From Candidatus Omnitrophota bacterium (GTDB taxonomy: Bacteria > Omnitrophota > Gorgyraeia > Zapsychrales > Zapsychraceae): a stretch of DNA of 64,000 nt. The stretch spans positions 260,876 through 324,875 of the forward strand of contig JAJDCB010000030.1 in the NCBI GenBank assembly GCA_029261065.1, written 5' to 3'. The position numbers were made by a program, and so were the translations under genes. The notes under the pieces are model-generated. The model made no database searches and was not told where the DNA came from. It saw only the letters and a list, made by a program, of their open reading frames with translations. This document shows positions 2,515-53,672 of this stretch, piece after piece; the first letter of the stretch is position 1, and every line of letters starts with the position of its first letter.

Positions 2515-4140
2515 TTATTCAGAAGAAGGAGATTCTGGCATTTCAAAGGGAAGTATAATGCTTACGGTGGTACCTTGGTTTTTCACACTTGTAATACGAA
2601 TTTTTCCTTTATGGCTTTCAATAATGCTTTGCGCAATTGATAGGCCTAAACCAGTATGTTTTTCTTTTGTGCTGTAAAATGGATCAAAAATTTTATTCAA
2701 TTCTTTATCGGGGATGCCACAGCCCGTATCTTTAACATGAATTATAAAGTAAAATGATGTTTGTTCCGTCTCAATCGTTAAATTCCCGCCCCTTGGCATT
2801 GCTTCCAAAGCATTGATGATAATGTTAACTATTGTTTGATTGATTTGATCTGGGTCTATCACTAGATTAACAAATTGTTTATCATCAAATTTTTTATGCA
2901 CCTCAACACCATTTTCTAATATGTTGTTTTTTAAAATTACCAGAGTACTGTTTATTAATAATACAATATTAGTATTTTTTGTCGTTAAAGGGGTTGGGTT
3001 GCTGTATTGATTGAGATGATGAAGCAAACTGTTAATGCGTTGGACCTCGTTTGCGAGAACAGTAGAAAATTTATTTAGAAATTCTTCATCATGTAATTTT
3101 TTAGGAAGATAATGACAATATCCATTGATGGCCGTCAGGGGGTTTTTTATTTCATGAATTATGCTATTGGTTAATGTGGCCAACGTTTTATATCTTTCCG
3201 CTTGAGCGGCTTCTTTCATGAGAAGCTCATTTTGTTCTGCAATTTGAGAAAAACTTCCTTTAAAGAAGTATCGATCAATAAGTGATTGAATAACATTTTT
3301 CAGAGGGATAAAAATTAAGGCAATCGTGGCCATGGCAATCGTTGAACTTACCAAGGATTGGTAACCTAAAATATCTTGGAAAATACGCTCTAGAATGTAA
3401 ATGGTCACAAAATAAAGAATGGTAATGCATGTGATAAGGCTGGAATAAACAAGTCCTTTTTTAAGGATGATATTTATATTAAAAAGTTGGTATCTAAGTA
3501 TAGCGTAAGCAAAGAGAAGGACATAAATGGCTACGAAAATGTTACCAACGGGAGGAATAGGGATGTCAAACCAGAGGGGGAAGTTTGTAAAACCTCCCGA
3601 ATAACTAATTAAGGAGCCAAAAAGAATATATCTGATTTGGTTGCGTTTGATGGGGTGCGTTGTTTTATATTCTTTGGAAAGCAATATAACGCTATAAATG
3701 ATTAAAAGGGCGTAAAGAATAACGTATATTAAGTAGTACTTTCCTGCTGTTGGCCAAAACTCAAACATCATTCTAGGTTTAACATCTTTCACAAAGAGAG
3801 GGGTGAAATTTAATATTAGAAATCCGAGACTTACGACGTATCCAATTAGGATTTTTACACGGTGTTTTTTGTAATTTCCAATTAAGTTAACACAAAAATG
3901 AAAATAGGTGTTTGGGATGAAGATAGCTCCTGTCATTAAGGCGCGGCACCAGAAAAGGGCTGTCGTCTCGGTCTTAGAAAGTTGCCATATAAAATAGCAT
4001 ATTGACCAAATAAAAATAGAGGATGCGAAGTAAAAAAAGGATCGGTTTAAAGAAGATTTTGGGTTTTTGGAAAAAACAAAGATTCCTAAAATTAATGATA
4101 CCAAAGTATTGAGTAAAGCGCTGAAAGGGAAATACCACAT
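2515..4140 (-). CDS. Membrane sensor histidine kinase, paralog of 133..1731 (7TM sensor, HisKA, HATPase_c)
   Basis: Long blocks near-identical to the first HK ('ALFWCRALMTGAIFIPNTYFHF', 'FTNFPLWFDIP', 'ILRYQLF', 'IDRYFFKGS', 'HEIKNPLTAI'). HATPase motifs 'DTGCGI' and 'HTGLGLSIA'. Confidence 0.8.
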   Translation of the reverse strand: MWYFPFSALLNTLVSLILGIFVFSKNPKSSLNRSFFYFASSIFIWSICYFIWQLSKTETTALFWCRALMTGAIFIPNTYFHFCVNLIGNYKKHRVKILIGYVVSLGFLILNFTPLFVKDVKPRMMFEFWPTAGKYYLIYVILYALLIIYSVILLSKEYKTTHPIKRNQIRYILFGSLISYSGGFTNFPLWFDIPIPPVGNIFVAIYVLLFAYAILRYQLFNINIILKKGLVYSSLITCITILYFVTIYILERIFQDILGYQSLVSSTIAMATIALIFIPLKNVIQSLIDRYFFKGSFSQIAEQNELLMKEAAQAERYKTLATLTNSIIHEIKNPLTAINGYCHYLPKKLHDEEFLNKFSTVLANEVQRINSLLHHLNQYSNPTPLTTKNTNIVLLINSTLVILKNNILENGVEVHKKFDDKQFVNLVIDPDQINQTIVNIIINALEAMPRGGNLTIETEQTSFYFIIHVKDTGCGIPDKELNKIFDPFYSTKEKHTGLGLSIAQSIIESHKGKIRITSVKNQGTTVSIILPFEMPESPSSE

Positions 4141-28375: not shown

Positions 28376-30511
28376 ATGAAGTTTAATATTATGTTTAATT
28401 TTTTATTTGTTCCTAAAAGATCTTTTCCTTATTGGTTTCTTTCCGTTATATGTCTTTGGGCCTATATAACACTATCTACAAGTAGTGTATCAGCCAATCC
28501 CATTATGGACGTTTCCTATCGCGAGATGTGGGATGTCAAACCAACTCCGATAGAAAATCAGATTAAGGCGAAACCTACTCTTAATAAAGAGAGTGAGCCT
28601 TTGAGAACTGTTTCGATGAAACGTTCTTTTAAAGATGATAATAAGCAGAAACAATATAATCAAGAAGATGTGAGTTATGAGATAGCTCCCGTTTATGTCC
28701 GTCCAAGCCTAGAATATCAAGCCTCGCCTTCTCGAAGCTGGTCTGATGAAGTTGTTGTTACAGCTAAGCGTATCCCTACTTTTTCCAGCCACAGTGCAGA
28801 AAATATAAAAGTTATTACAGAAAAAGACATAGAAAAGTTGCCTGCCAGAAATCTTGGAGAGGTCTTAAAGTATGTTCCAGGGGTGGATGTTCTCTCTACG
28901 TCGGAATTTGGCCAAGCCTCATCTGTTTCGATTAATGGATCGAAGTCAAGGCAAGTGTTGATAATGGTCGATGGTATTCCTTTTAATACACAGCTTTCTG
29001 GTCAAGCGAATCCAACGCGTATTCCCATTGGGCACATTAAGCAAATTGAAGTCATTAAGGGTGCCTCCTCAAGTGCTTGGGGGTCAAGTATTGGAGGTGT
29101 TATTAATGTTATTACCAAAGATGTTGGCGACTCTCATATTCCCGAGGGACAATTTACGACTAGTTACGGTGAGTTTGCTAGTACAACCAACAGTCTAGAT
29201 TTATCAGGAAAGGTTGGTGAGTTAGGCTATTATTTGTCAGGCAGTTTTCTTAAAACAGATGGGCCTTTCTCAGAGACAGATGTCGAAGAAACTAAATCAT
29301 TTCTAAAGCTTGCTCACCCTTTAGCTGATGCTGCGAAATTAACGGCATCATTTGGATATAGTGGGGCAAATGTGCGTTATGGCGTTACGCGATCAAATCG
29401 TATTAATTCAACGCCCTACATCTCTAGATATGGTCAGCTTGTCTTGGATGTTGATAAACCAACATTTGATTTTCAAGCGGCCTATAAGTATAACGATCAA
29501 GATATTACGACAGATATTTTTAATGCCTCAACAGGAGCCTTAGTCTCGGCAACAGTCAGTCACAATTTTCTTCAGGGTGTGGGTTTAAATGGAAGTATGG
29601 AAATCAATGAAACAGATACTTTTGTTTTAGGAGGAGATTTTGACTGGCAAACGCTTAAGTCTAATAATTTTTTAACAGAAAGTAAAAGTATAGGAACACA
29701 GGCCGCTTACAGTAATTACACGAGAAGTACAGATCGTTGGGATGTTATTCCTGGAATCAGATATGATCGAAACGAACATTTTGGCGAGCAATTTAGTCCC
29801 AGCTTTGGTGTTGTTTATCATTTTTTAAATTCTTCCGAAACATTACTCCGTGCAAAAGCCTCCCAAGCCTTCAATGCGCCACCTTTACTATGGATATTTA
29901 ACGATGATCCCACATTATTCGTTGGTCCTAGTCCTGATTTAGACGCTGAAAGTGCAAATGTTTATGAGTTAGGATTAGAGTCTGACATTTCTTCAAGGGT
30001 GCATATGAATTTAAGTTTATATCGCATGGATGTAAAGGATGCGATTGGATTGGTTTTTCAAGGAGGAGCTTTTGTTCAACGTAACTTTAGAAAATTTAGA
30101 AGACAAGGGGCCGAATTGCAACTGCAATATGATATTACTAAGGATTTATCGCTTGTGACAAGTGGAGCTTTTAACGATGTTGAAAATAGAGAGACAGGCC
30201 AGATGGTGCGGGATCAAGGTGTGGCTCGGCAAAGTTATTTGTTGGGTATGAATTATAAAAATAATAAAGGATATGGCGTTTATTTAAATGGTTATTATAA
30301 ACGGTGGAGTTCTTCTCCTTCTTTACAAGCAAACGATCGTAAATTTATATTAGATGCTAAGTTGACAAAAGAATGGGCTAATGTATTTAGACATATGGAT
30401 ATGGAGGTGTTTTTTAATATTCATAATGTTACCAATAGTAAATACTGGTCTAGCATCAATTTTCCTCTTCCCGAAAGGCACCTCGAAGGAGGGCTAACAA
30501 TTAAATTTTAA
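28376..30511 (+). CDS. TonB-dependent outer-membrane receptor
   Basis: Plug domain ('VVVTAKRIPTFSSHSAENIKVITEKDIEKLPARNLGEVLKYVPGV'). Long beta-barrel ending in terminal aromatic 'TIKF'. Confidence 0.8.
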   Translation: MKFNIMFNFLFVPKRSFPYWFLSVICLWAYITLSTSSVSANPIMDVSYREMWDVKPTPIENQIKAKPTLNKESEPLRTVSMKRSFKDDNKQKQYNQEDVSYEIAPVYVRPSLEYQASPSRSWSDEVVVTAKRIPTFSSHSAENIKVITEKDIEKLPARNLGEVLKYVPGVDVLSTSEFGQASSVSINGSKSRQVLIMVDGIPFNTQLSGQANPTRIPIGHIKQIEVIKGASSSAWGSSIGGVINVITKDVGDSHIPEGQFTTSYGEFASTTNSLDLSGKVGELGYYLSGSFLKTDGPFSETDVEETKSFLKLAHPLADAAKLTASFGYSGANVRYGVTRSNRINSTPYISRYGQLVLDVDKPTFDFQAAYKYNDQDITTDIFNASTGALVSATVSHNFLQGVGLNGSMEINETDTFVLGGDFDWQTLKSNNFLTESKSIGTQAAYSNYTRSTDRWDVIPGIRYDRNEHFGEQFSPSFGVVYHFLNSSETLLRAKASQAFNAPPLLWIFNDDPTLFVGPSPDLDAESANVYELGLESDISSRVHMNLSLYRMDVKDAIGLVFQGGAFVQRNFRKFRRQGAELQLQYDITKDLSLVTSGAFNDVENRETGQMVRDQGVARQSYLLGMNYKNNKGYGVYLNGYYKRWSSSPSLQANDRKFILDAKLTKEWANVFRHMDMEVFFNIHNVTNSKYWSSINFPLPERHLEGGLTIKF

Positions 30512-30627
30512 GAGTTAAAGTTTTTTTGTCTTTAAGTAGAAAAAAGTCATGAAATAGTACCCTTATCCTATTTTCATTTTCAAAATTTAAACTATAATTA
30601 TGGTTAATTATTTATGTGTGTAAATTA

Positions 30628-32274
30628 ATGAATAACATCGTAATAAAGGTTTTCTTTTTGGTAATGGCAATATCTTATTCCATACCTACTGCAGTATCAG
30701 CAAATCAATCCACAATCCCTACAAATCGTTTATTAAAATTCAGAGATCAAACTAATCCAAATTTACTTTCATCAGAGCCCCAGTACGGTGGAGAATTAAT
30801 TTGGGGGACAAGCAATCCTCCGTCGATCATTAATCCTATTTTAACACATATGAGTGTTTCCACGAGCCTTGTTCAGCTTATATTCAATGGCCTTGTTAAA
30901 AAAAATCCGCAAGGTGAAATAATTCCTTCGCTAGCAGAATCATGGGATATCTCTGATGATCATCTTACATATACATTTTATTTGAGAAAAAACGTCAGAT
31001 TTCATGACGGTGTCGAACTTACAGCGGAGGATGTTAAATTTACTTATGAGCTGATTGTTAATGATAAAGTAGACTCTATCTATAGATCTTCGCTAATTTC
31101 TGTTAGCCATTTTGATGTGTTAGATAAATATACAATTCGAATTGTTTTGAAAAAGGATGTGCAAAATTTTATTCATCAGCTAGTTCGTTTTATTGTACCT
31201 AAACATTTATTAGAAAATGAAGATGTTCAGAATACAAAATTTAATTATCAACCTATTGGAAGCGGACCATTTAAGTTTCAGAATTGGGATAAAATTACAA
31301 ATGAGATTGAGCTAGTCGCGAATAAAGATTATTTTGAAGGACGACCTTATTTGGATAGCATATTAATCAAGCAATACCCAAATAAGAATGCATTATGGTC
31401 GGCGTTGATGAGAAATGAGGTTGATCTTGTTCTGTTTTTAAGCAAGAAAGACTACAACATTTTAAAGGATGATCCTTCTTATAATGTTTACAGAATACCC
31501 TTGGAATTTAATTGTGCAATTATTTATAACACGCAAGATGCAATACTAAATGATTTTGAAGTTAGAAAGGCGATTGCTCATAGTATTGACAGAAAAAAAT
31601 TGATTTCAGATGTTTCGATTGAAGGTTTAGAAAGCGTGGGACCCTTACATCCCGATGCTTTAAAGGGTGATCATTTGTTAAATCTATTTGAATATAATCC
31701 TCATAAAGCAAAAGTTATTTTGATGCATAGAGGGTGGAGGGATGATAACAAAGATGGAATTCTTGAGAAAGAAGGAAGAGATTTAGAAATTAAACTTTTG
31801 GTTTATGAACAAAATGAAGATTTTAAAAAGATTGTACAAGTTTTACATCAACGATTTGCTGATGTTGGAATAAAGTTAAGTGTTCTTTTGTATAACGACA
31901 ATTTGCAATTAACTGACGAGTTTTTGCAAAAACATAAACCTCAAGCATGGATAAGATTTCTTTCTTCAAGGTTGTCTAATAAGTATGTCAATCTTGGATA
32001 TTGGTACTCTCAATCCAGTGAATTTGGACGATTGTGGAAATATGAAAATAAAAAATTTGATGAAATATATGAAAGTGGATTAATTGAAAAAGATGTGGAT
32101 GAGAGGTACAAGTTATACGAAGAGATGCACGATATCATTTACAAAGATCAACCTGCAAGTTTTTTATTTGTTCCTGTAAGTTATCATGCTGTTTCTGAAA
32201 AATTTAGAAATGTAGACGCATTGTTTAAACATAATATGGCTGTTTATACTTTATCTGAATGGTATTTGGAGTAA
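30628..32274 (+). CDS. Periplasmic solute-binding protein, family 5 (peptide/nickel/opine type; MbnE/OppA/DppA-like)
   Basis: Signal peptide 'MNNIVIKVFFLVMAISYSIPTAVSA'. SBP_bac_5 core ('LVKKNPQGEIIPSLAESWDISDDHLTYTFYLRKNVRFHDG'). No permease or ATPase genes adjacent. Confidence 0.75.
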   Translation: MNNIVIKVFFLVMAISYSIPTAVSANQSTIPTNRLLKFRDQTNPNLLSSEPQYGGELIWGTSNPPSIINPILTHMSVSTSLVQLIFNGLVKKNPQGEIIPSLAESWDISDDHLTYTFYLRKNVRFHDGVELTAEDVKFTYELIVNDKVDSIYRSSLISVSHFDVLDKYTIRIVLKKDVQNFIHQLVRFIVPKHLLENEDVQNTKFNYQPIGSGPFKFQNWDKITNEIELVANKDYFEGRPYLDSILIKQYPNKNALWSALMRNEVDLVLFLSKKDYNILKDDPSYNVYRIPLEFNCAIIYNTQDAILNDFEVRKAIAHSIDRKKLISDVSIEGLESVGPLHPDALKGDHLLNLFEYNPHKAKVILMHRGWRDDNKDGILEKEGRDLEIKLLVYEQNEDFKKIVQVLHQRFADVGIKLSVLLYNDNLQLTDEFLQKHKPQAWIRFLSSRLSNKYVNLGYWYSQSSEFGRLWKYENKKFDEIYESGLIEKDVDERYKLYEEMHDIIYKDQPASFLFVPVSYHAVSEKFRNVDALFKHNMAVYTLSEWYLE

Positions 32275-32305
32275 AGTGCTTAACTAAAAGAAAGGAGGAG
32301 AAAAA

Positions 32306-32410
32306 ATGGAAATTGTAAAATTGGGTTCAAATGATTTAAATCAACAAGATTCATTGAATTGTTGTTGGCCACCCGGGGCAGAGGTGTTAGAAACCCCATC
32401 GGATGAATAA
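32306..32410 (+). CDS. Candidate RiPP precursor peptide, 34 aa (MEIVKLGSNDLNQQDSLNCCWPPGAEVLETPSDE); absent from the ORF track
   Basis: Near-perfect RBS 'aaggaggag' 6 nt upstream of ATG 32306; in-frame stop upstream at 32285. Immediately precedes a radical SAM/SPASM enzyme. Cys-Cys-Trp-Pro-Pro-Gly core, acidic C-terminus. Confidence 0.55.
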   Translation: MEIVKLGSNDLNQQDSLNCCWPPGAEVLETPSDE

Positions 32411-32422
32411 CTTTTCATAAAT

Positions 32423-32485
32423 TTTTAGCGCACTATTTATCAATAACTGCGGCATTTAGTAAGGTTGAAAAATAGTGCGCTAAAA
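32423..32485 (+). promoter_or_regulatory. 16-bp perfect inverted repeat (TTTTAGCGCACTATTT / AAATAGTGCGCTAAAA) between the peptide gene and the radical SAM gene
   Basis: Arms at 32423..32438 and 32470..32485 with a 31-nt spacer. Either an RNA hairpin (attenuator or processing site setting the precursor:enzyme ratio) or a palindromic operator. Confidence 0.5.
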
Positions 32486-32514
32486 GTTTACGGAATAAAT
32501 AAAGGATTTTTCAT

Positions 32515-33882
32515 ATGAAGTTTTCTTGCCATACTATCATTGTCGATCATTACCCAGAAGTAAATCAGCACTTACTTTATAATACACGCACACAGTCGAT
32601 GATCAAAATTGATCAAGAACTTCGGCGTACTATTGAAGAGTATCCTAAAAATATTAAGATGATTTCAAAAAAGACTTGGGAGGATTTGAAGGCCTTACAC
32701 AATATGGGTATATTAGTTGAAAATGATGACGAAGATATGCTTAGACTTAAAAGTCATATGATGCAACTTAAGAAAAGTGTAAACGCAAAAGTTTTGCCGA
32801 TAACTATTTTAACGACATATGCCTGTAACTTTAAATGTAGCTATTGCTTTCAAGAAAGTTCACGTACCTTTGATAAGATGACAACAGAAACAAGTGACCA
32901 TGTGATTAGCTGGTTAAAATATAAAGTGAAGCAGTTTGGCTATCAAAAACTGCTCATTAATTTTTATGGGGGGGAGCCGCTTGTTAATCAGCGTACTTTA
33001 AAAGAAATTGTCAGTCAGATGAAACCTTGGTGTGAAGGAGAAGGTGTTGAGTTTAAGTTTATGTTACAAACTAATGGTTATTTGATGACTTCCCAATTGG
33101 TTGATGAATATATCGAGATGGGTTTAGATCAGGTTCGTATTTCTGTTGATGGTGTTGGGGAAGATCACGATCGGCATCGACCGTTAAGAAATGGGAAGGG
33201 GACGTTTGATCGCGTTATGAAAAATATTGTTGATAATGTTGATAAATTGAAAATTGGGATTTCTATTAGTTATGATAAAGGACAAGTTGATCATATTGAA
33301 CGATTTTTTGATTACTGCAATGATTTAGGAATAACAAAAAAATTGGGCCGATTTATCTTTTCTCCTATACATGCAACTTTGGGGCCAAAAGAGAAGCCTG
33401 AGATGATACAAAATTCAAGCTGCATGTGTAATTACGAAGATAAAAGTTTAGAGGATGCGAATCGTAAAATTAATGCTCTTATGCGTGCCAATGGGCTTGT
33501 AAGTAAAAGTGGTATGTCAACATCTACATGTCCTGTCACACGTGATAATTCTGGGATGACGATAGACCAGCATGGACATTTGTATAAATGTAACTCCATG
33601 TTAGGGCATCCGGAGCTCTCTACAGGGCATGTGAAAGATCTTATCTATAATCAAAAACATCGTGAATTTGTTAATTTGGATGTTTACAAACAATGCCCTG
33701 TTGATTGCACCTATATGCCAATGTGTAGTGGCGGGTGTCGATTATCCTCGTTTTTAAAAAACAAAAACTTTACTACACCCACCTGCCACAAGCCTTATCT
33801 TAATAAGATGGCGCCGGATTTAATCAAAAAAGATTATGAGTCCTTGATGGCAAAGGCAAAGCCTTCATTAGCAAAGAGTTGA
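32515..33882 (+). CDS. Radical SAM / SPASM-domain peptide-modifying enzyme with N-terminal RRE-like extension
   Basis: CxxxCxxC 'CNFKCSYC' begins at residue 104, after a ~95-aa N-terminal domain. C-terminal Cys-rich SPASM region ('CPVTRD', 'CNSMLGH', 'CPVDCTYMPMCSGGC'). Confidence 0.75.
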   Translation: MKFSCHTIIVDHYPEVNQHLLYNTRTQSMIKIDQELRRTIEEYPKNIKMISKKTWEDLKALHNMGILVENDDEDMLRLKSHMMQLKKSVNAKVLPITILTTYACNFKCSYCFQESSRTFDKMTTETSDHVISWLKYKVKQFGYQKLLINFYGGEPLVNQRTLKEIVSQMKPWCEGEGVEFKFMLQTNGYLMTSQLVDEYIEMGLDQVRISVDGVGEDHDRHRPLRNGKGTFDRVMKNIVDNVDKLKIGISISYDKGQVDHIERFFDYCNDLGITKKLGRFIFSPIHATLGPKEKPEMIQNSSCMCNYEDKSLEDANRKINALMRANGLVSKSGMSTSTCPVTRDNSGMTIDQHGHLYKCNSMLGHPELSTGHVKDLIYNQKHREFVNLDVYKQCPVDCTYMPMCSGGCRLSSFLKNKNFTTPTCHKPYLNKMAPDLIKKDYESLMAKAKPSLAKS

Positions 33883-34035
33883 GATTTATCGATTATGCGA
33901 GGCTATAAGCTGTTCTTACCTAGAGTCTTTTTAATTGATTAACATTTTAAGTTATAGTAGTCTATTAAAAAGTGCTCCATCTAAAGTCTTTTACCGATAT
34001 GTCCATTTCCATGGAAAAGGCCACAATACAAACAT

Positions 34036-35793
34036 ATGAGATTTAACTTCAAGCGTTTACGTTTTTTATTTCCAAATCGTATTTGGCATCAGATATTTTT
34101 TGTCCTCATTTTTATGGTGGTCATTCCGCTTGTCATTTTGGGGACGTTACTTATTACAACGAGTAAAAGAACGATTAAAACCTCAGTTTTAAGGGATTAT
34201 AAGCAAATTGCCATTCATGCGACGGGAGAAGTTGAGCAAAGTATTGAAGGGGCAAAGCATGCCTTAGAAGTAGCGGCCTCGATTTTAGGAATCCTACAGT
34301 CCGATATTTGGCGTCAAGAAACCACATTAGTTGAGTTAGCCTTACAATATCCCGCCTATCGACGTGTATCCAGCGTTGATTTAAATGGAGAAGAGCTGGC
34401 AACATCCGAGTTGGGGACTATTTTTCGTGACTGGTCCAATGAAAAAGTCTTTAAAGAGGCGCGTGAGGGAAATGCTTATATTTCTAAAGTCAGGATAGGT
34501 GCAGATCATATCCCATTATTAATTATTGCGACGCCCATTATATCGTTGGGTAAGACTAGGGGGGTGCTTATAGGAGAGCTAAATATTAGGGGAATTTGGG
34601 ATATTGTCGATAGCATCAAATTTGGCGAGACGGGGCGTGCTTATTTAATTGATCAAGAGGGACGGGTGATTGCTCATCCGGATAAAAAGATTGTGTTTCA
34701 AAATAATGCCGTTATCTCTCCTAAAGTCCCTAGCGCTGTCTTGCAGGGAAAGTCAGGGGCCATTGAACAAAAGGATGAGAATTCAAGAATGTGGTTGGTG
34801 TCATACGCTCCAGTAGAAGGGCTTAATTGGGGCTTGATCATCTCTCAATTGGAATCTGAAGCCATGAGCTTTTCAAAGGTTATGCAACATCAATCATGGT
34901 TACTCATTGGTCTAAGTTTACTGGCGACTGTATTGATAAGTTTTATCTTGGCCAGATCTATTCGTCGACCTATTCATCATCTTATAGATGGAACAAATCG
35001 TTTAGCTAAAGGAGACTATGGGTTTTCGTTTCGTATCGGACAAAGAAATGAGATCGGTAAATTACTGTTTTCGTTTAATCGAATGGCCAGAAAGCTTGAA
35101 AAGGCACAACGAATGGAGCGGTTATCTTTTGTTGGTCGTGCCGCAACAGCTATTGCCCATGAATTGAAAAATTCTCTTGTTCTTGTAAAAACGTTTGTTC
35201 AACTTTTACCAGAGAGACATCAAGAAGAAAAGTTTATTAAAGATTTTTCAAAAATAATTCCTCGAGAATTAGAAACGTGGAATGAGATGTTAAGGGGTAT
35301 TATGGAATATTCTAGAAATAAGGATTTTTCAAAAGAATTAATTGACGTTAATCAAATGATTGAAAATGTTTTTTCTTTGGCCGAGTTGCGAGTTAAACAA
35401 AAAGACATTGAGTTAAATTTAAATATGAATTCAGATATTCCTCGCGTTTTTGGAAATGAAGAGAAGCTAAAGCAAGTTGTGCTTAATTTGGTTACTAACG
35501 CTATAGATGCTACATCAACAGGGGGTTCGATTACAATGGCGACAGAATTGGTGCCTATGAAGGATGCTAGTGGATACGAGGTAGAGTTGAAAGTTATTGA
35601 TACAGGAGAAGGTATGAGCCAAGAGCAAGTTTCAAGGATTTTCGAACCATTTTTTTCTACCAAAAAAAATGGATTAGGTCTGGGGTTGGCTATAAGCCAG
35701 GATATTGTTAAGCATCATGGGGGCGTTATTCAAGTTTATTTAAACAAATTTGAAACGTCTTTTGTTGTTAGATTGCCAGTATCAACAGCTTAG
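34036..35793 (+). CDS. Sensor histidine kinase with periplasmic Cache-like domain, HAMP, HisKA, HATPase_c
   Basis: TM1 at residues ~20-42 and TM2 at ~285-305 around a ~240-aa periplasmic domain. H-box 'AHELKNSLVLV'. 'DTGEGM...GLGLGLAISQDIV'. Confidence 0.75.
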   Translation: MRFNFKRLRFLFPNRIWHQIFFVLIFMVVIPLVILGTLLITTSKRTIKTSVLRDYKQIAIHATGEVEQSIEGAKHALEVAASILGILQSDIWRQETTLVELALQYPAYRRVSSVDLNGEELATSELGTIFRDWSNEKVFKEAREGNAYISKVRIGADHIPLLIIATPIISLGKTRGVLIGELNIRGIWDIVDSIKFGETGRAYLIDQEGRVIAHPDKKIVFQNNAVISPKVPSAVLQGKSGAIEQKDENSRMWLVSYAPVEGLNWGLIISQLESEAMSFSKVMQHQSWLLIGLSLLATVLISFILARSIRRPIHHLIDGTNRLAKGDYGFSFRIGQRNEIGKLLFSFNRMARKLEKAQRMERLSFVGRAATAIAHELKNSLVLVKTFVQLLPERHQEEKFIKDFSKIIPRELETWNEMLRGIMEYSRNKDFSKELIDVNQMIENVFSLAELRVKQKDIELNLNMNSDIPRVFGNEEKLKQVVLNLVTNAIDATSTGGSITMATELVPMKDASGYEVELKVIDTGEGMSQEQVSRIFEPFFSTKKNGLGLGLAISQDIVKHHGGVIQVYLNKFETSFVVRLPVSTA

Positions 35794-35924
35794 ATAACAA
35801 ACAATTTTTGGTAGAAAAAAGTCAGCAAGTGGAACCTTGGCCCTATTTACAAATTTTGAAAAGTTTGTCATAGTATTAATCAATTCAATTAAGTTTTTTA
35901 ATTAATATTTTTATTAGGAGCAAT

Positions 35925-36656
35925 ATGCTATCTGAAACAATTGTGGTTATTGATGATGATGAGCGTGTAATTCAAAGTTTAGAACTAGCTCTTAGCGAAT
36001 ATGAAGTGGTTGGTTTTGAAAAGCCTAAAGAGGCAATGGTTTATTTACGTAAGCCGAATGAAGTAAGTCTTGTTTTATTGGATGTTATGATGCCTAAAGT
36101 TAATGGTATTAACATTCTTCAAGAAATCAAAAGTTTAAAAACAGATTTATCGGTCATAATGATTACGGCTTACGGCTCAAAAGATGTTGTCATGCAAGCG
36201 TTAAGAAATAAAGCAGATGATTTTATTGAAAAGCCTTTCGATATCAAAGAAATTAGACAAAAAATTAAAGAACATTTGAGTAAAAAATTAAAGTTTTCAA
36301 CTTATGGCGTCACGCAAAATCTTCATGTGGAGCGTATCAGACGTTTTATCGATCGAAATTACAATAATGTAAATTTAGATGAAATAGCCAGCCAAATGTG
36401 TTTAAGTCCCAAATATATTAGTCGGCTTTTTAATAGAGTTAATGACATCGATTTTCGTGATTATAAAGTGCAAGTAAAAATTAAACGTGCCAAAGATCTT
36501 CTTGTAAACACCTCTTTAAGTGTCCACGATATATCTAACGATTTGGGCTATCAAAATCCGGAATCATTTATGCGTATTTTTAAACAAAAAGTTAAACTTA
36601 CTCCTATGCAGTATCGAAAAAAGAGTTTAGTCTCTCAAAGTATAGATCATGAATAA
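35925..36656 (+). CDS. Response regulator with receiver and AraC-type HTH output
   Basis: REC ('VVIDDDERV', 'LVLLDVMMPKVNG') plus C-terminal AraC HTH ('YISRLFNRVNDIDFRDYKVQVKIKRAKDLL...PESFMRIFK'). Confidence 0.75.
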   Translation: MLSETIVVIDDDERVIQSLELALSEYEVVGFEKPKEAMVYLRKPNEVSLVLLDVMMPKVNGINILQEIKSLKTDLSVIMITAYGSKDVVMQALRNKADDFIEKPFDIKEIRQKIKEHLSKKLKFSTYGVTQNLHVERIRRFIDRNYNNVNLDEIASQMCLSPKYISRLFNRVNDIDFRDYKVQVKIKRAKDLLVNTSLSVHDISNDLGYQNPESFMRIFKQKVKLTPMQYRKKSLVSQSIDHE

Positions 36657-37047
36657 TGTTAAGATATTAATTATCGATGGACACCCTGTTTATTATCAGA
36701 AAACAGTTGGGTTTCTTAAAGGTCTAACGTTAAAAGACATTACAACGGCTAGTTCAGGCCAAGAGGGACTTAAAAAGGTTGATATGTTAAGGCCGGATCT
36801 CATCATGATGAGTGCTATGTTGCCAGATTTTGATGGCGTAGATATTTGTAGAGAAATTAGGGCTATTAAAGACTACACACCAAAAATTATTGTTCAAATA
36901 GGTGTCTTTTATGAAGAAAAGGATATAGACGATCTTTATCAAAGTGGGGCGAACAAAGTTGTTCTTCGCAAAGAAAAAGACTTCTTATCTTTAGAGAAGG
37001 CCATTGATGAGTTGTTGTTCTCAAAGTCAGGATCCCGCCAAAGTTAG
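36649..37047 (+). CDS. Atypical single-domain receiver (pseudo-receiver) lacking the phospho-acceptor Asp
   Basis: Receiver fold, but the canonical 'DLxxLD' site reads 'DLIMMSAM' (Asp replaced by Ser). Overlaps the upstream AraC-RR gene by 8 nt. Confidence 0.55.
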   Translation: MNNVKILIIDGHPVYYQKTVGFLKGLTLKDITTASSGQEGLKKVDMLRPDLIMMSAMLPDFDGVDICREIRAIKDYTPKIIVQIGVFYEEKDIDDLYQSGANKVVLRKEKDFLSLEKAIDELLFSKSGSRQS

Positions 37048-52305: not shown

Positions 52306-52330
52306 TTAAGAGATTATTGAAGAATAAAAA

Positions 52331-52364
52331 AAAAGAGGTTAGCTTTTGCTAACCTCTTTTTTTT
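52331..52364 (+). terminator. Rho-independent terminator (bidirectional-looking)
   Basis: 'aaaaagaggttagc-tttt-gctaacctcttttttttt': perfect 10-bp stem flanked by an A-run upstream and a T-run downstream. Confidence 0.75.
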
Positions 52365-52818: not shown

Positions 52819-52857
52819 TAATTTGGAAGTTATTTAGTATAGATACTAAATAAAAAT

Positions 52858-52884
52858 GGATGAGATGAATACTCATCCTTTTTT
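52858..52884 (+). terminator. Rho-independent terminator after doxX
   Basis: 'ggatgag-atgaata-ctcatcc' followed by 'ttttttattt'. Confidence 0.6.
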
Positions 52885-52932
52885 ATTTGTTTAAATGAGT
52901 AAGCCCATTTTTCTTGGAGATGATTACATCTC

Positions 52933-53622: not shown

Positions 53623-53629
53623 TAACCAA

Positions 53630-53655
53630 GTAACCCCGCCAAAAGGCGGGGTTAC
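53630..53655 (+). terminator. Stem-loop (probable terminator or attenuator) after yceI
   Basis: Perfect 11-bp GC-rich stem 'gtaaccccgcc-aaaa-ggcggggttac'; weak downstream T-run. Confidence 0.5.
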
Positions 53656-53672
53656 TTGTAACTTTTACAAAC

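Follow-up and report, generated by a model that had tools for sequence, protein, structure and literature searches.

Probable attenuation or stabilisation of mRNA by a hairpin kept between the precursor-peptide and radical SAM maturase genes of an Omnitrophota RiPP cassette

Why should the longest local inverted repeat in 64 kb of DNA from an uncultured Omnitrophota-type bacterium (the whole stretch analysed, 64,000 nt, is here called the window) lie in the short spacer between a small peptide ORF and the gene for a radical SAM enzyme? One arm, TTTTAGCGCACTATTT, and its exact reverse complement, AAATAGTGCGCTAAAA, match at 16 of 16 positions across a 31-nt spacer (32439-32469), and both a reading of the sequence and a search bear out the initial annotation, in which a perfect 16-bp repeat with that separation had been described. 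The same annotation placed it 13 nt after the peptide stop codon and 30 nt before the start of the radical SAM gene; each distance was too long by one, as 12 nt separate the TAA (32408-32410) from the 5′ arm, and 29 nt the 3′ arm from the ATG at 32515. Could the repeat be fortuitous in DNA whose GC content, given earlier as 36%, is measured at 36.1%? At the composition of the window the chance expectation is 0.0025 perfect repeats of at least 16 bp, with loops of 3-60 nt, per window, and the longest repeat encountered across 100 dinucleotide shuffles was 13 bp. A mismatch-tolerant search of the window found exactly two perfect copies of the arm, one per strand, and no further copy with up to 2 mismatches in the 64 kb; at 3 mismatches there are 5 matches in the 64 kb, both arms included, versus 1.5 expected, and none is like a paired repeat. 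A separate (Logan) assembly of run SRR15505515 (L090) has the identical repeat within 5368 bp of 100% identity.

Table 1. Features in and around the inverted repeat, in window positions
Feature	Position	Strand	Basis
SBP_bac_5 substrate-binding protein (SBP) gene	30616..32274	+	Pfam PF00496, E = 1.5e-75
Strong Shine-Dalgarno of precursor ORF, AAGGAGG	32292..32298	+	Sequence; GGAGG likewise ahead of the peptide ORF in related loci
Precursor peptide ORF, 34 aa, MEIVKLGSNDLNQQDSLNCCWPPGAEVLETPSDE	32306..32410	+	ORF list; 21 aligned homologous peptides
Complete RNA hairpin, 83 nt	32413..32495	+	RNAfold MFE -35.5 kcal/mol, z = -7.5; longest local inverted repeat
5′ arm of perfect 16-bp core repeat	32423..32438	+	Sequence, mismatch-tolerant search, chance estimate
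3′ arm of perfect 16-bp core repeat	32470..32485	+	Sequence, mismatch-tolerant search, chance estimate
Shine-Dalgarno of radical SAM gene, AAAGGA	32501..32506	+	Sequence; unpaired in MFE fold, 6 nt past the hairpin, 8 nt before the ATG
Radical SAM/SPASM peptide maturase gene, 455 aa	32515..33882	+	Pfam Radical_SAM; best NCBIfam TIGR04280

What company does the repeat keep? The SBP gene ends 31 nt ahead of the peptide ORF, with which it is probably co-transcribed, and the order SBP then peptide is kept in all loci, with spacers of under 10 to about 70 nt. Ahead of the SBP gene is that for a TonB-dependent receptor (28376-30511), and 3′ of the maturase gene come those for a dCache-HAMP histidine kinase, an AraC-type response regulator (RR, 35925-36656) and a second receiver protein. 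The kept order is (TonB receptor,) SBP, peptide, radical SAM (rSAM), (ABC exporter in some,) dCache kinase, AraC-type RR, RR. This cassette spans 28376-37047 of the window and is also seen in loci L002, L004, L007 and L091-L104, its sources being Omnitrophota and related metagenome-assembled genomes; its peptide has 31-40 aa, in which CC is invariant and the core is W/F-P-P-G, its last gene encodes a stand-alone receiver, and an ABC exporter is added in L098, L099, L101, L103 and L104. From its sequence it looks like an uncharacterised module for peptide production, sensing and uptake, distantly related to the ‘geopeptide’ system of TIGR04229 and TIGR04280.

The standing of the small ORF as a precursor gene is supported by its 21 homologues, as these always precede a maturase. 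In their alignment (n = 21) G7, C19, C20 and P22 are invariant, and the precursor core, …CCWPPG…, is geopeptide-like with an invariant CC..P. The TIGR04229 geopeptide model matches 9 of the 21 family peptides, weakly (best E = 2.7e-4), and leaves the window peptide unmatched; judged by sequence the peptide belongs to a related but distinct family. The best NCBIfam match of the maturase is to the TIGR04280 geopeptide maturase, over the full length at 254.9 bits, which is under the 400-bit cutoff. There are 421 maturase homologues at E <= 1e-20, from Omnitrophota and related metagenome-assembled genomes, and the maturase of the closest relative is only ~65% identical to that of the window. A literature search for ‘geopeptide’ found no usable paper.

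What would the repeat become on transcription? Folding of the RNA, proposed earlier as a check, gives a very stable hairpin whose main stem, with one G·U pair, is 21 bp without interruption (32418-32438 with 32470-32490). Outside it is a 4-bp helix (32413-32416 with 32492-32495), and the 31-nt ‘loop’ is itself structured, a 5-bp inner helix (32440-32444 with 32464-32468) closing part of it and a small apical stem lying there too. The + strand RNA reaches -35.5 kcal/mol in RNAfold versus -15.2 +/- 2.7 for dinucleotide shuffles, none of 200 of which equalled it; the - strand of the region folds to -29.5 kcal/mol. The stem is AT-rich, with a GC fraction of 0.24. An Rfam scan of both strands of 30000-36000 at E <= 1 gave no match.

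Is the hairpin a simple intrinsic terminator? The initial annotation held that it is not and that no U-tract follows it. The second point stands, the tail 3′ of the 21-bp stem, CGGAATAAA, having 1 T in 9 nt, and a terminator consensus scan made no call at the site. The first is right for the window hairpin, which at 21 bp, GC 0.24 and a loop of 31 nt differs from the canonical Rho-independent form (a GC-rich stem of ~5-14 bp, a loop of 3-8 nt and a U-tract immediately 3′ of the stem); yet between 5 and 9 of 19 orthologous hairpins are canonical terminators. Textbook intrinsic terminators also occur elsewhere in the window, at 52327-52364, 52848-52888 and 53627-53658 (e.g., AAAAAAAAGAGGTTAGC…GCTAACCTCTTTTTTTT), with A/T tracts on both flanks, hence apparently bidirectional. 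Since the same genome has T-tract terminators at the first two of these positions, the missing T-tract looks like a property of the hairpin site. Lacking the U-tract of those clear terminators, the window hairpin could terminate transcription with an efficiency close to zero.

Some other conceivable roles were set aside. Occlusion of the ribosome binding site is contradicted by the maturase Shine-Dalgarno sequence being unpaired in the centroid fold as well as in the MFE fold. Translation-coupled control, in which the footprint of the ribosome terminating on the peptide ORF would matter, is not claimed, because the offset from stop codon to stem, 0-24 nt among the loci, takes no consistent value. 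An integron attC or other recombination site was dismissed for the perfect stem with no extrahelical bases, the lack of an R-box and the conserved operon genes on both sides.

Is the hairpin a peculiarity of this one genome? Nine loci were taken from species-representative genomes, and 12 more look-ups covered contigs encoding homologues. The family set of 21 consists of 19 non-redundant loci with a CC[WF]PP peptide and the divergent L010 and L104; as outgroup served 11 more distant loci, whose peptides also have CC and whose maturases show 25-31% identity. A scan of metagenome contigs with the maturase alignment keyed on generic radical SAM motifs (CxxxCxxC, YGGEPL) and gave mostly enzymes 22-31% identical; L010 alone belongs to the family, and the 11 outgroup loci were drawn from the distant ones. 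A strong hairpin soon 3′ of the peptide stop is present in all 21 family loci and all 11 distant ones, 32 of 32. By stem search, each of the 19 CC[WF]PP loci has an uninterrupted stem of 9-21 bp in a peptide-maturase spacer of 50-199 nt, and the stem begins 0-24 nt past the peptide stop, the one exception being L098 with its two hairpins. In L010 and L104, where the peptide reads …GCCFPxGT…, a hairpin likewise follows it, as it does in all 11 loci with ‘…KG…CC…’ peptides.

Quantitatively, the median MFE per nucleotide is -0.36 in the post-peptide spacers versus -0.16 in 24 other same-strand spacers of the cassette (Mann-Whitney p = 5e-8, with controls that are few and heterogeneous), and the median stem is 14 bp versus 9 bp (p = 6e-6). 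In 13 of the 19 loci, 0-1 of about 145 local segments of the same length fold as well. The window hairpin is the extreme of the series, with the longest stem (21 bp) and the largest loop (31 nt); the GC fraction of its stem is near the lowest, only the short stem of L004 being lower at 0.22.

Conservation in homologous loci, which had been named as a test, thus turns out to be of structure and not of sequence. Stem sequences are unrelated between clades, nothing being shared outside close ones, and the spacers of different clades are unalignable. The accompanying suggestion of covariation fared less well, for a few compensatory changes are found within clades, and column-wise covariation is weak and clade-limited. 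One clade shares a GCCGGGG core with compensatory changes at 3 of 9 pairs by RNAalifold, in an alignment with two rows partly misaligned, and with 3 pairs only it was judged too weak to serve as proof of covariation. L010 and L104 differ by one compensatory pair (CCCTGG/CCAGGG versus CTCTGG/CCAGAG). For the window stem direct covariation is absent because the nearest relative, the one with the ~65% identical maturase, has an unalignable spacer. In L010 (~2660-2700) and L104 (~2935-2975) the loop and upper stem, CTGGGCGGCCGACCAG, are identical despite divergent surroundings, the only case in which the loop sequence, beyond pairing, looks conserved.

Does the repeat act as RNA or as DNA? When stems were defined with G·T and A·C allowed equally, their non-Watson-Crick pairs came to 13 G·T versus 3 A·C (binomial p = 0.011), and in 15 of 21 loci it is the + strand that gives the more stable fold (Wilcoxon p = 0.019); as tests of strand bias both are modest (p about 0.01-0.02), and the loci lack phylogenetic independence. 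As G·U is tolerated only in sense RNA, an RNA element in the sense mRNA is favoured. The alternative raised at the outset, that the palindrome is an operator bound by some dimeric regulator, the neighbouring AraC-type RR being one example, draws on the perfection of the 16/16 match, far beyond chance, and on the two-component system with an AraC-type output domain 3.4 kb downstream, which is kept with the cassette. However, the asymmetry between G·T and A·C would mean nothing in duplex DNA, and the HTH domains of the RRs are 49-62% identical across loci, yet the repeats have no common half-site, varying in arm length (9-21 bp), loop (3-31 nt) and GC content (0.22-1.0). The site comes after the peptide gene, not ahead of a promoter, and no second copy with up to 2 mismatches is present in the 64 kb, none near the likely promoter regions of the cassette. 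AraC/XylS proteins usually bind asymmetric sites of ~17-20 bp, often direct repeats, and not perfect palindromes with a 31-bp gap. The operator proposal is accordingly unsupported, and we regard it as hardly credible.

Might the repeat instead be one copy of a palindromic element dispersed through the genome, of the REP or MITE kind, that landed here by chance and has no function specific to the locus? REP-type elements are typically found in intergenic spacers inside operons, and beside its orthologues the stem in the window stands out for its length, perfection and AT-richness, which would suit a recent insertion. We consider the idea very improbable. Against it are the absence of other copies in the 64 kb beyond chance, even at 3 mismatches, of flanking target-site duplications and of other direct repeats, and the presence of a hairpin at the same position in every one of the related loci, by reason of which the site is under selection for a hairpin, whatever the origin of this one.

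If the selected feature is a hairpin in RNA, is its business to end transcription? A clear U-tract of 5-7 consecutive T follows the stem in L003, L005, L008, L009 and L092, in which the signature of GC-rich stem plus U-tract is complete; it is partial in L002, L006, L096 and L102, and there is none in the window or in L001, L004, L007, L093, L094, L097, L098, L099 and L101. The hairpin is the invariant feature and the U-tract is optional, being found in about half of the loci.

Complete termination of a receptor-SBP-peptide operon, with the maturase and downstream genes under a promoter of their own, would sit well with the strong canonical form in L003, L092 and L008, with runs of 6-7 T, and with post-hairpin spacers long enough for a promoter in L005 (83 nt), L094 (74 nt) and L008 (60 nt). 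In the window, however, the hairpin has no U-tract and 19-24 nt lead from it to the ATG, room for the ribosome binding site only, and from the end of the stem to the maturase start there are at most 33 nt in 13 of the 19 loci (24 nt in the window). Over 32300-32680 a promoter scan, whose consensus may not be that of the phylum, marked nothing promoter-like on the + strand. There being no such site and no room for a promoter plus 5′UTR, the maturase and the downstream signalling genes are probably expressed by read-through, and complete termination is a decidedly unlikely account.

How then may the element work? The inverted repeat would act as RNA in the sense transcript, folding just past the precursor stop codon and splitting what is presumably one polycistronic message at that point. 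Its upstream segment would encode the products needed in bulk, (the TonB receptor,) the periplasmic binding protein and the precursor peptide, and its downstream segment those needed in catalytic or regulatory amounts, i.e., the radical SAM maturase, histidine kinase and response regulators; with bulk products upstream and catalytic or regulatory ones downstream, the gene order fits a hairpin at the boundary. Some RNA polymerases would stop or pause at the hairpin, and transcripts ended or cleaved further downstream would be trimmed 3′ to 5′ as far as the hairpin, which would block the exonucleases. In this way the upstream segment would accumulate, the maturase would be made from read-through transcripts only, and the ratio of the mRNAs would shift. 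A leaky terminator and/or 3′-end stabiliser that keeps SBP and precursor mRNA above enzyme mRNA is the reading that, from the genomic evidence, we hold to be rather likely. It agrees with the earlier suggestion of a partial terminator or stability element, for which the hairpin in 21 of 21 and 11 of 11 loci, the unrelated stems and the preference for G·U over A·C, 13 to 3, provide sequence-level support.

The two components need not weigh equally in all loci. Leaky intrinsic termination probably dominates in the relatives with U-tract hairpins, and 3′-end protection or processing probably does in the window, given its 21-bp AT-rich stem, 31-nt loop and lack of a U-tract. Could the protective component be replaced by cutting? 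On that proposal the duplex is a processing site for RNase III, whose cleavage parts the upstream from the downstream mRNA and sets their half-lives. About two helical turns is the canonical length of an RNase III substrate; the window has a 21-bp uninterrupted duplex (26 bp with near-pairs), and stems of 16-18 bp occur in the relatives L006, L093, L094, L098, L101 and L102. However, in L001, L003, L005 and L096 the stems are only 9-12 bp, GC-rich, capped by tetraloops and terminator-like, and as many orthologous stems are of that short kind, RNase III cleavage cannot be the mechanism for the family as a whole; besides, a cut within the stem would take away the protective 3′ structure. We think it unlikely. 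A broader proposition is that the hairpin is no terminator at all but a processing or stability boundary, whether RNase III substrate or exonuclease barrier, within one receptor-SBP-precursor-maturase-kinase-regulator mRNA, in which the precursor would share a high-abundance segment with the probable binding protein and receptor. That we entertain tentatively, as a possibility on the doubtful side. If true, the boundary would tune the stoichiometry of the peptide production, sensing and uptake module, beyond the ratio of substrate to enzyme.

Is a leaky terminator or stabiliser in such a place without precedent? Far from it, as both its components are known from other operons. The REP sequences at malE-malF in E. 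coli and the hairpin between pufBA and pufLMX in Rhodobacter block 3′ exonucleases and give differential expression. Like the hairpin here they are long stable stem-loops without a U-tract inside an operon, with the upstream segment outlasting the downstream one, and in the mal operon the segment upstream of the REP sequence also encodes a periplasmic binding protein; unlike it, REP elements form multi-copy families, whereas the window hairpin is single-copy in the window and is likened to them from its sequence. Like a canonical Rho-independent terminator it is a stem-loop placed where a coding region ends; it differs in its low stem GC, T-poor tail, silence in the terminator scan and 31-nt loop, which is atypical for terminators.

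Closer in setting are the imperfect terminators, or ‘attenuators’, that commonly follow RiPP precursor genes, as discussed in PMC7113386, in which one is predicted after btmD in the bottromycin cluster, where transcription falls, and in which lantibiotic and microcin operons are cited for attenuators downstream of the precursor gene. They have in common with the present case a same-strand stem-loop in the short spacer from the precursor to the next biosynthetic gene, a dependence of the downstream genes on read-through that is probable here, and a presumed purpose, excess of substrate peptide over enzymes. The present case is unlike them in that the precursor gene is not the first gene, following those for the TonB receptor and, after the 31-nt spacer, the binding protein. 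As it follows both, the window hairpin would also raise the receptor and SBP products. Unlike them too, the window instance has an AT-rich stem of 21 bp, a structured 31-nt loop and no U-tract, its host is an uncultured Omnitrophota-type bacterium, and its RiPP class is that of an uncharacterised geopeptide-like CC peptide.

Experimental instances come from lasso peptides, where removal of a hairpin or replacement of the A-B intergenic region raises yields from the astexin-1 and capistruin clusters (PMC7549694). Those hairpins too lie between the precursor gene (A) and the first maturation gene (B), whose expression ratio they control; the RiPP class and enzymes are different, and they have been tested experimentally whereas the window hairpin is known from genomic data. 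The junction of pqqA and pqqB offers another parallel, a tiny precursor gene in an rSAM-dependent RiPP-like pathway, with precursor mRNA far above that of the downstream genes in PQQ; it differs in that pqqA is at or near the start of the operon and has neither a binding-protein gene nor a receptor gene linked to it. For some species a hairpin downstream of pqqA has been described. What PMC6722718 documents is the expression ratio and not a hairpin: within one operon the log2 TPM is 12.8 for pqqA and 6.9 for pqqB, about 60-fold. A negative example exists, as no stem-loop was found in the pld locus (PMC4742701), and a literature search for read-through between nisA and nisB found nothing usable.

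Set beside these systems, the hairpin has what marks an attenuator or intercistronic hairpin, a place in the spacer on the same strand, stability above chance and a structure kept in orthologous loci, and lacks what marks an operator or a canonical intrinsic terminator, nor does it match any Rfam family. From the sequence comparisons it is a well-supported, ordinary attenuator or stabiliser, familiar from operons for other peptide natural products, and its departures from the textbook attenuator, a precursor gene that is not first and, in the window instance, no U-tract, are minor.

What follows from so ordinary an element? In itself the hairpin matters little, being a textbook way to get more substrate peptide than enzyme; its type was already known, and what is new is the setting, an uncharacterised RiPP family of an uncultured phylum. 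The cassette of CC peptide, rSAM, SBP and two-component genes is probably the more interesting object. There are nonetheless practical uses. The hairpin shows where a 34-aa ORF, of a sort often missed by gene callers, truly ends on its 3′ side, which aids the annotation of an uncharacterised CC-peptide/rSAM family that is widespread in Omnitrophota. In heterologous expression it would be expected to throttle the maturase, and its removal may be needed, as with lasso peptides. Furthermore the 32 loci, with hairpin invariant and U-tract optional, constitute a clean natural series for separating termination from RNA stability in the ‘attenuator’ effect.

Some further observations concern particular loci. 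In the distant L011-L014, L016, L017, L019, L022-L024 and L028 a short peptide ORF, with a hairpin after each, is upstream of the rSAM match, and the peptides have a leader ‘(I/V)x(V/I)LxKG…’ and a core ‘CC’ (e.g., MKKRIIVLDKGVTGKDLLTGGCCPSSSQRA), which suggests, at the level of sequence, a broad CC-peptide RiPP superfamily with a common leader. The 199-nt spacer of L098 has two consecutive strong hairpins (-89 kcal/mol), and at 3001-3079 of that locus the deposited 498-aa call for protein P0043 starts 26 codons 5′ of the conserved MKLS start, running through the second hairpin; the start is probably mis-called. In L009 (6001-6090) the N-terminus of the maturase leaves the family consensus after ~16 residues, and in the Logan contig L099 (1111-2745) the SBP gene is split in two ORFs, though intact in the NCBI contig L100; frameshifts or assembly errors are the probable source of both oddities. 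In L103 (1692-4341) a family maturase, P0082 (49% identity), is directly 3′ of an EPSP-synthase gene, with neither SBP gene, peptide ORF nor spacer upstream of it and with the ABC exporter and dCache kinase genes still downstream; perhaps its precursor gene lies elsewhere, or perhaps the locus is degenerate. Back in the window, the 153-nt spacer between the maturase and kinase genes (33883-34035) has only weak inverted repeats, 33927-33941 with 33958-33972 at 87% and a CCATGG-centred palindrome at 34000-34023, and may provide the kinase gene with a promoter or a weak structure.
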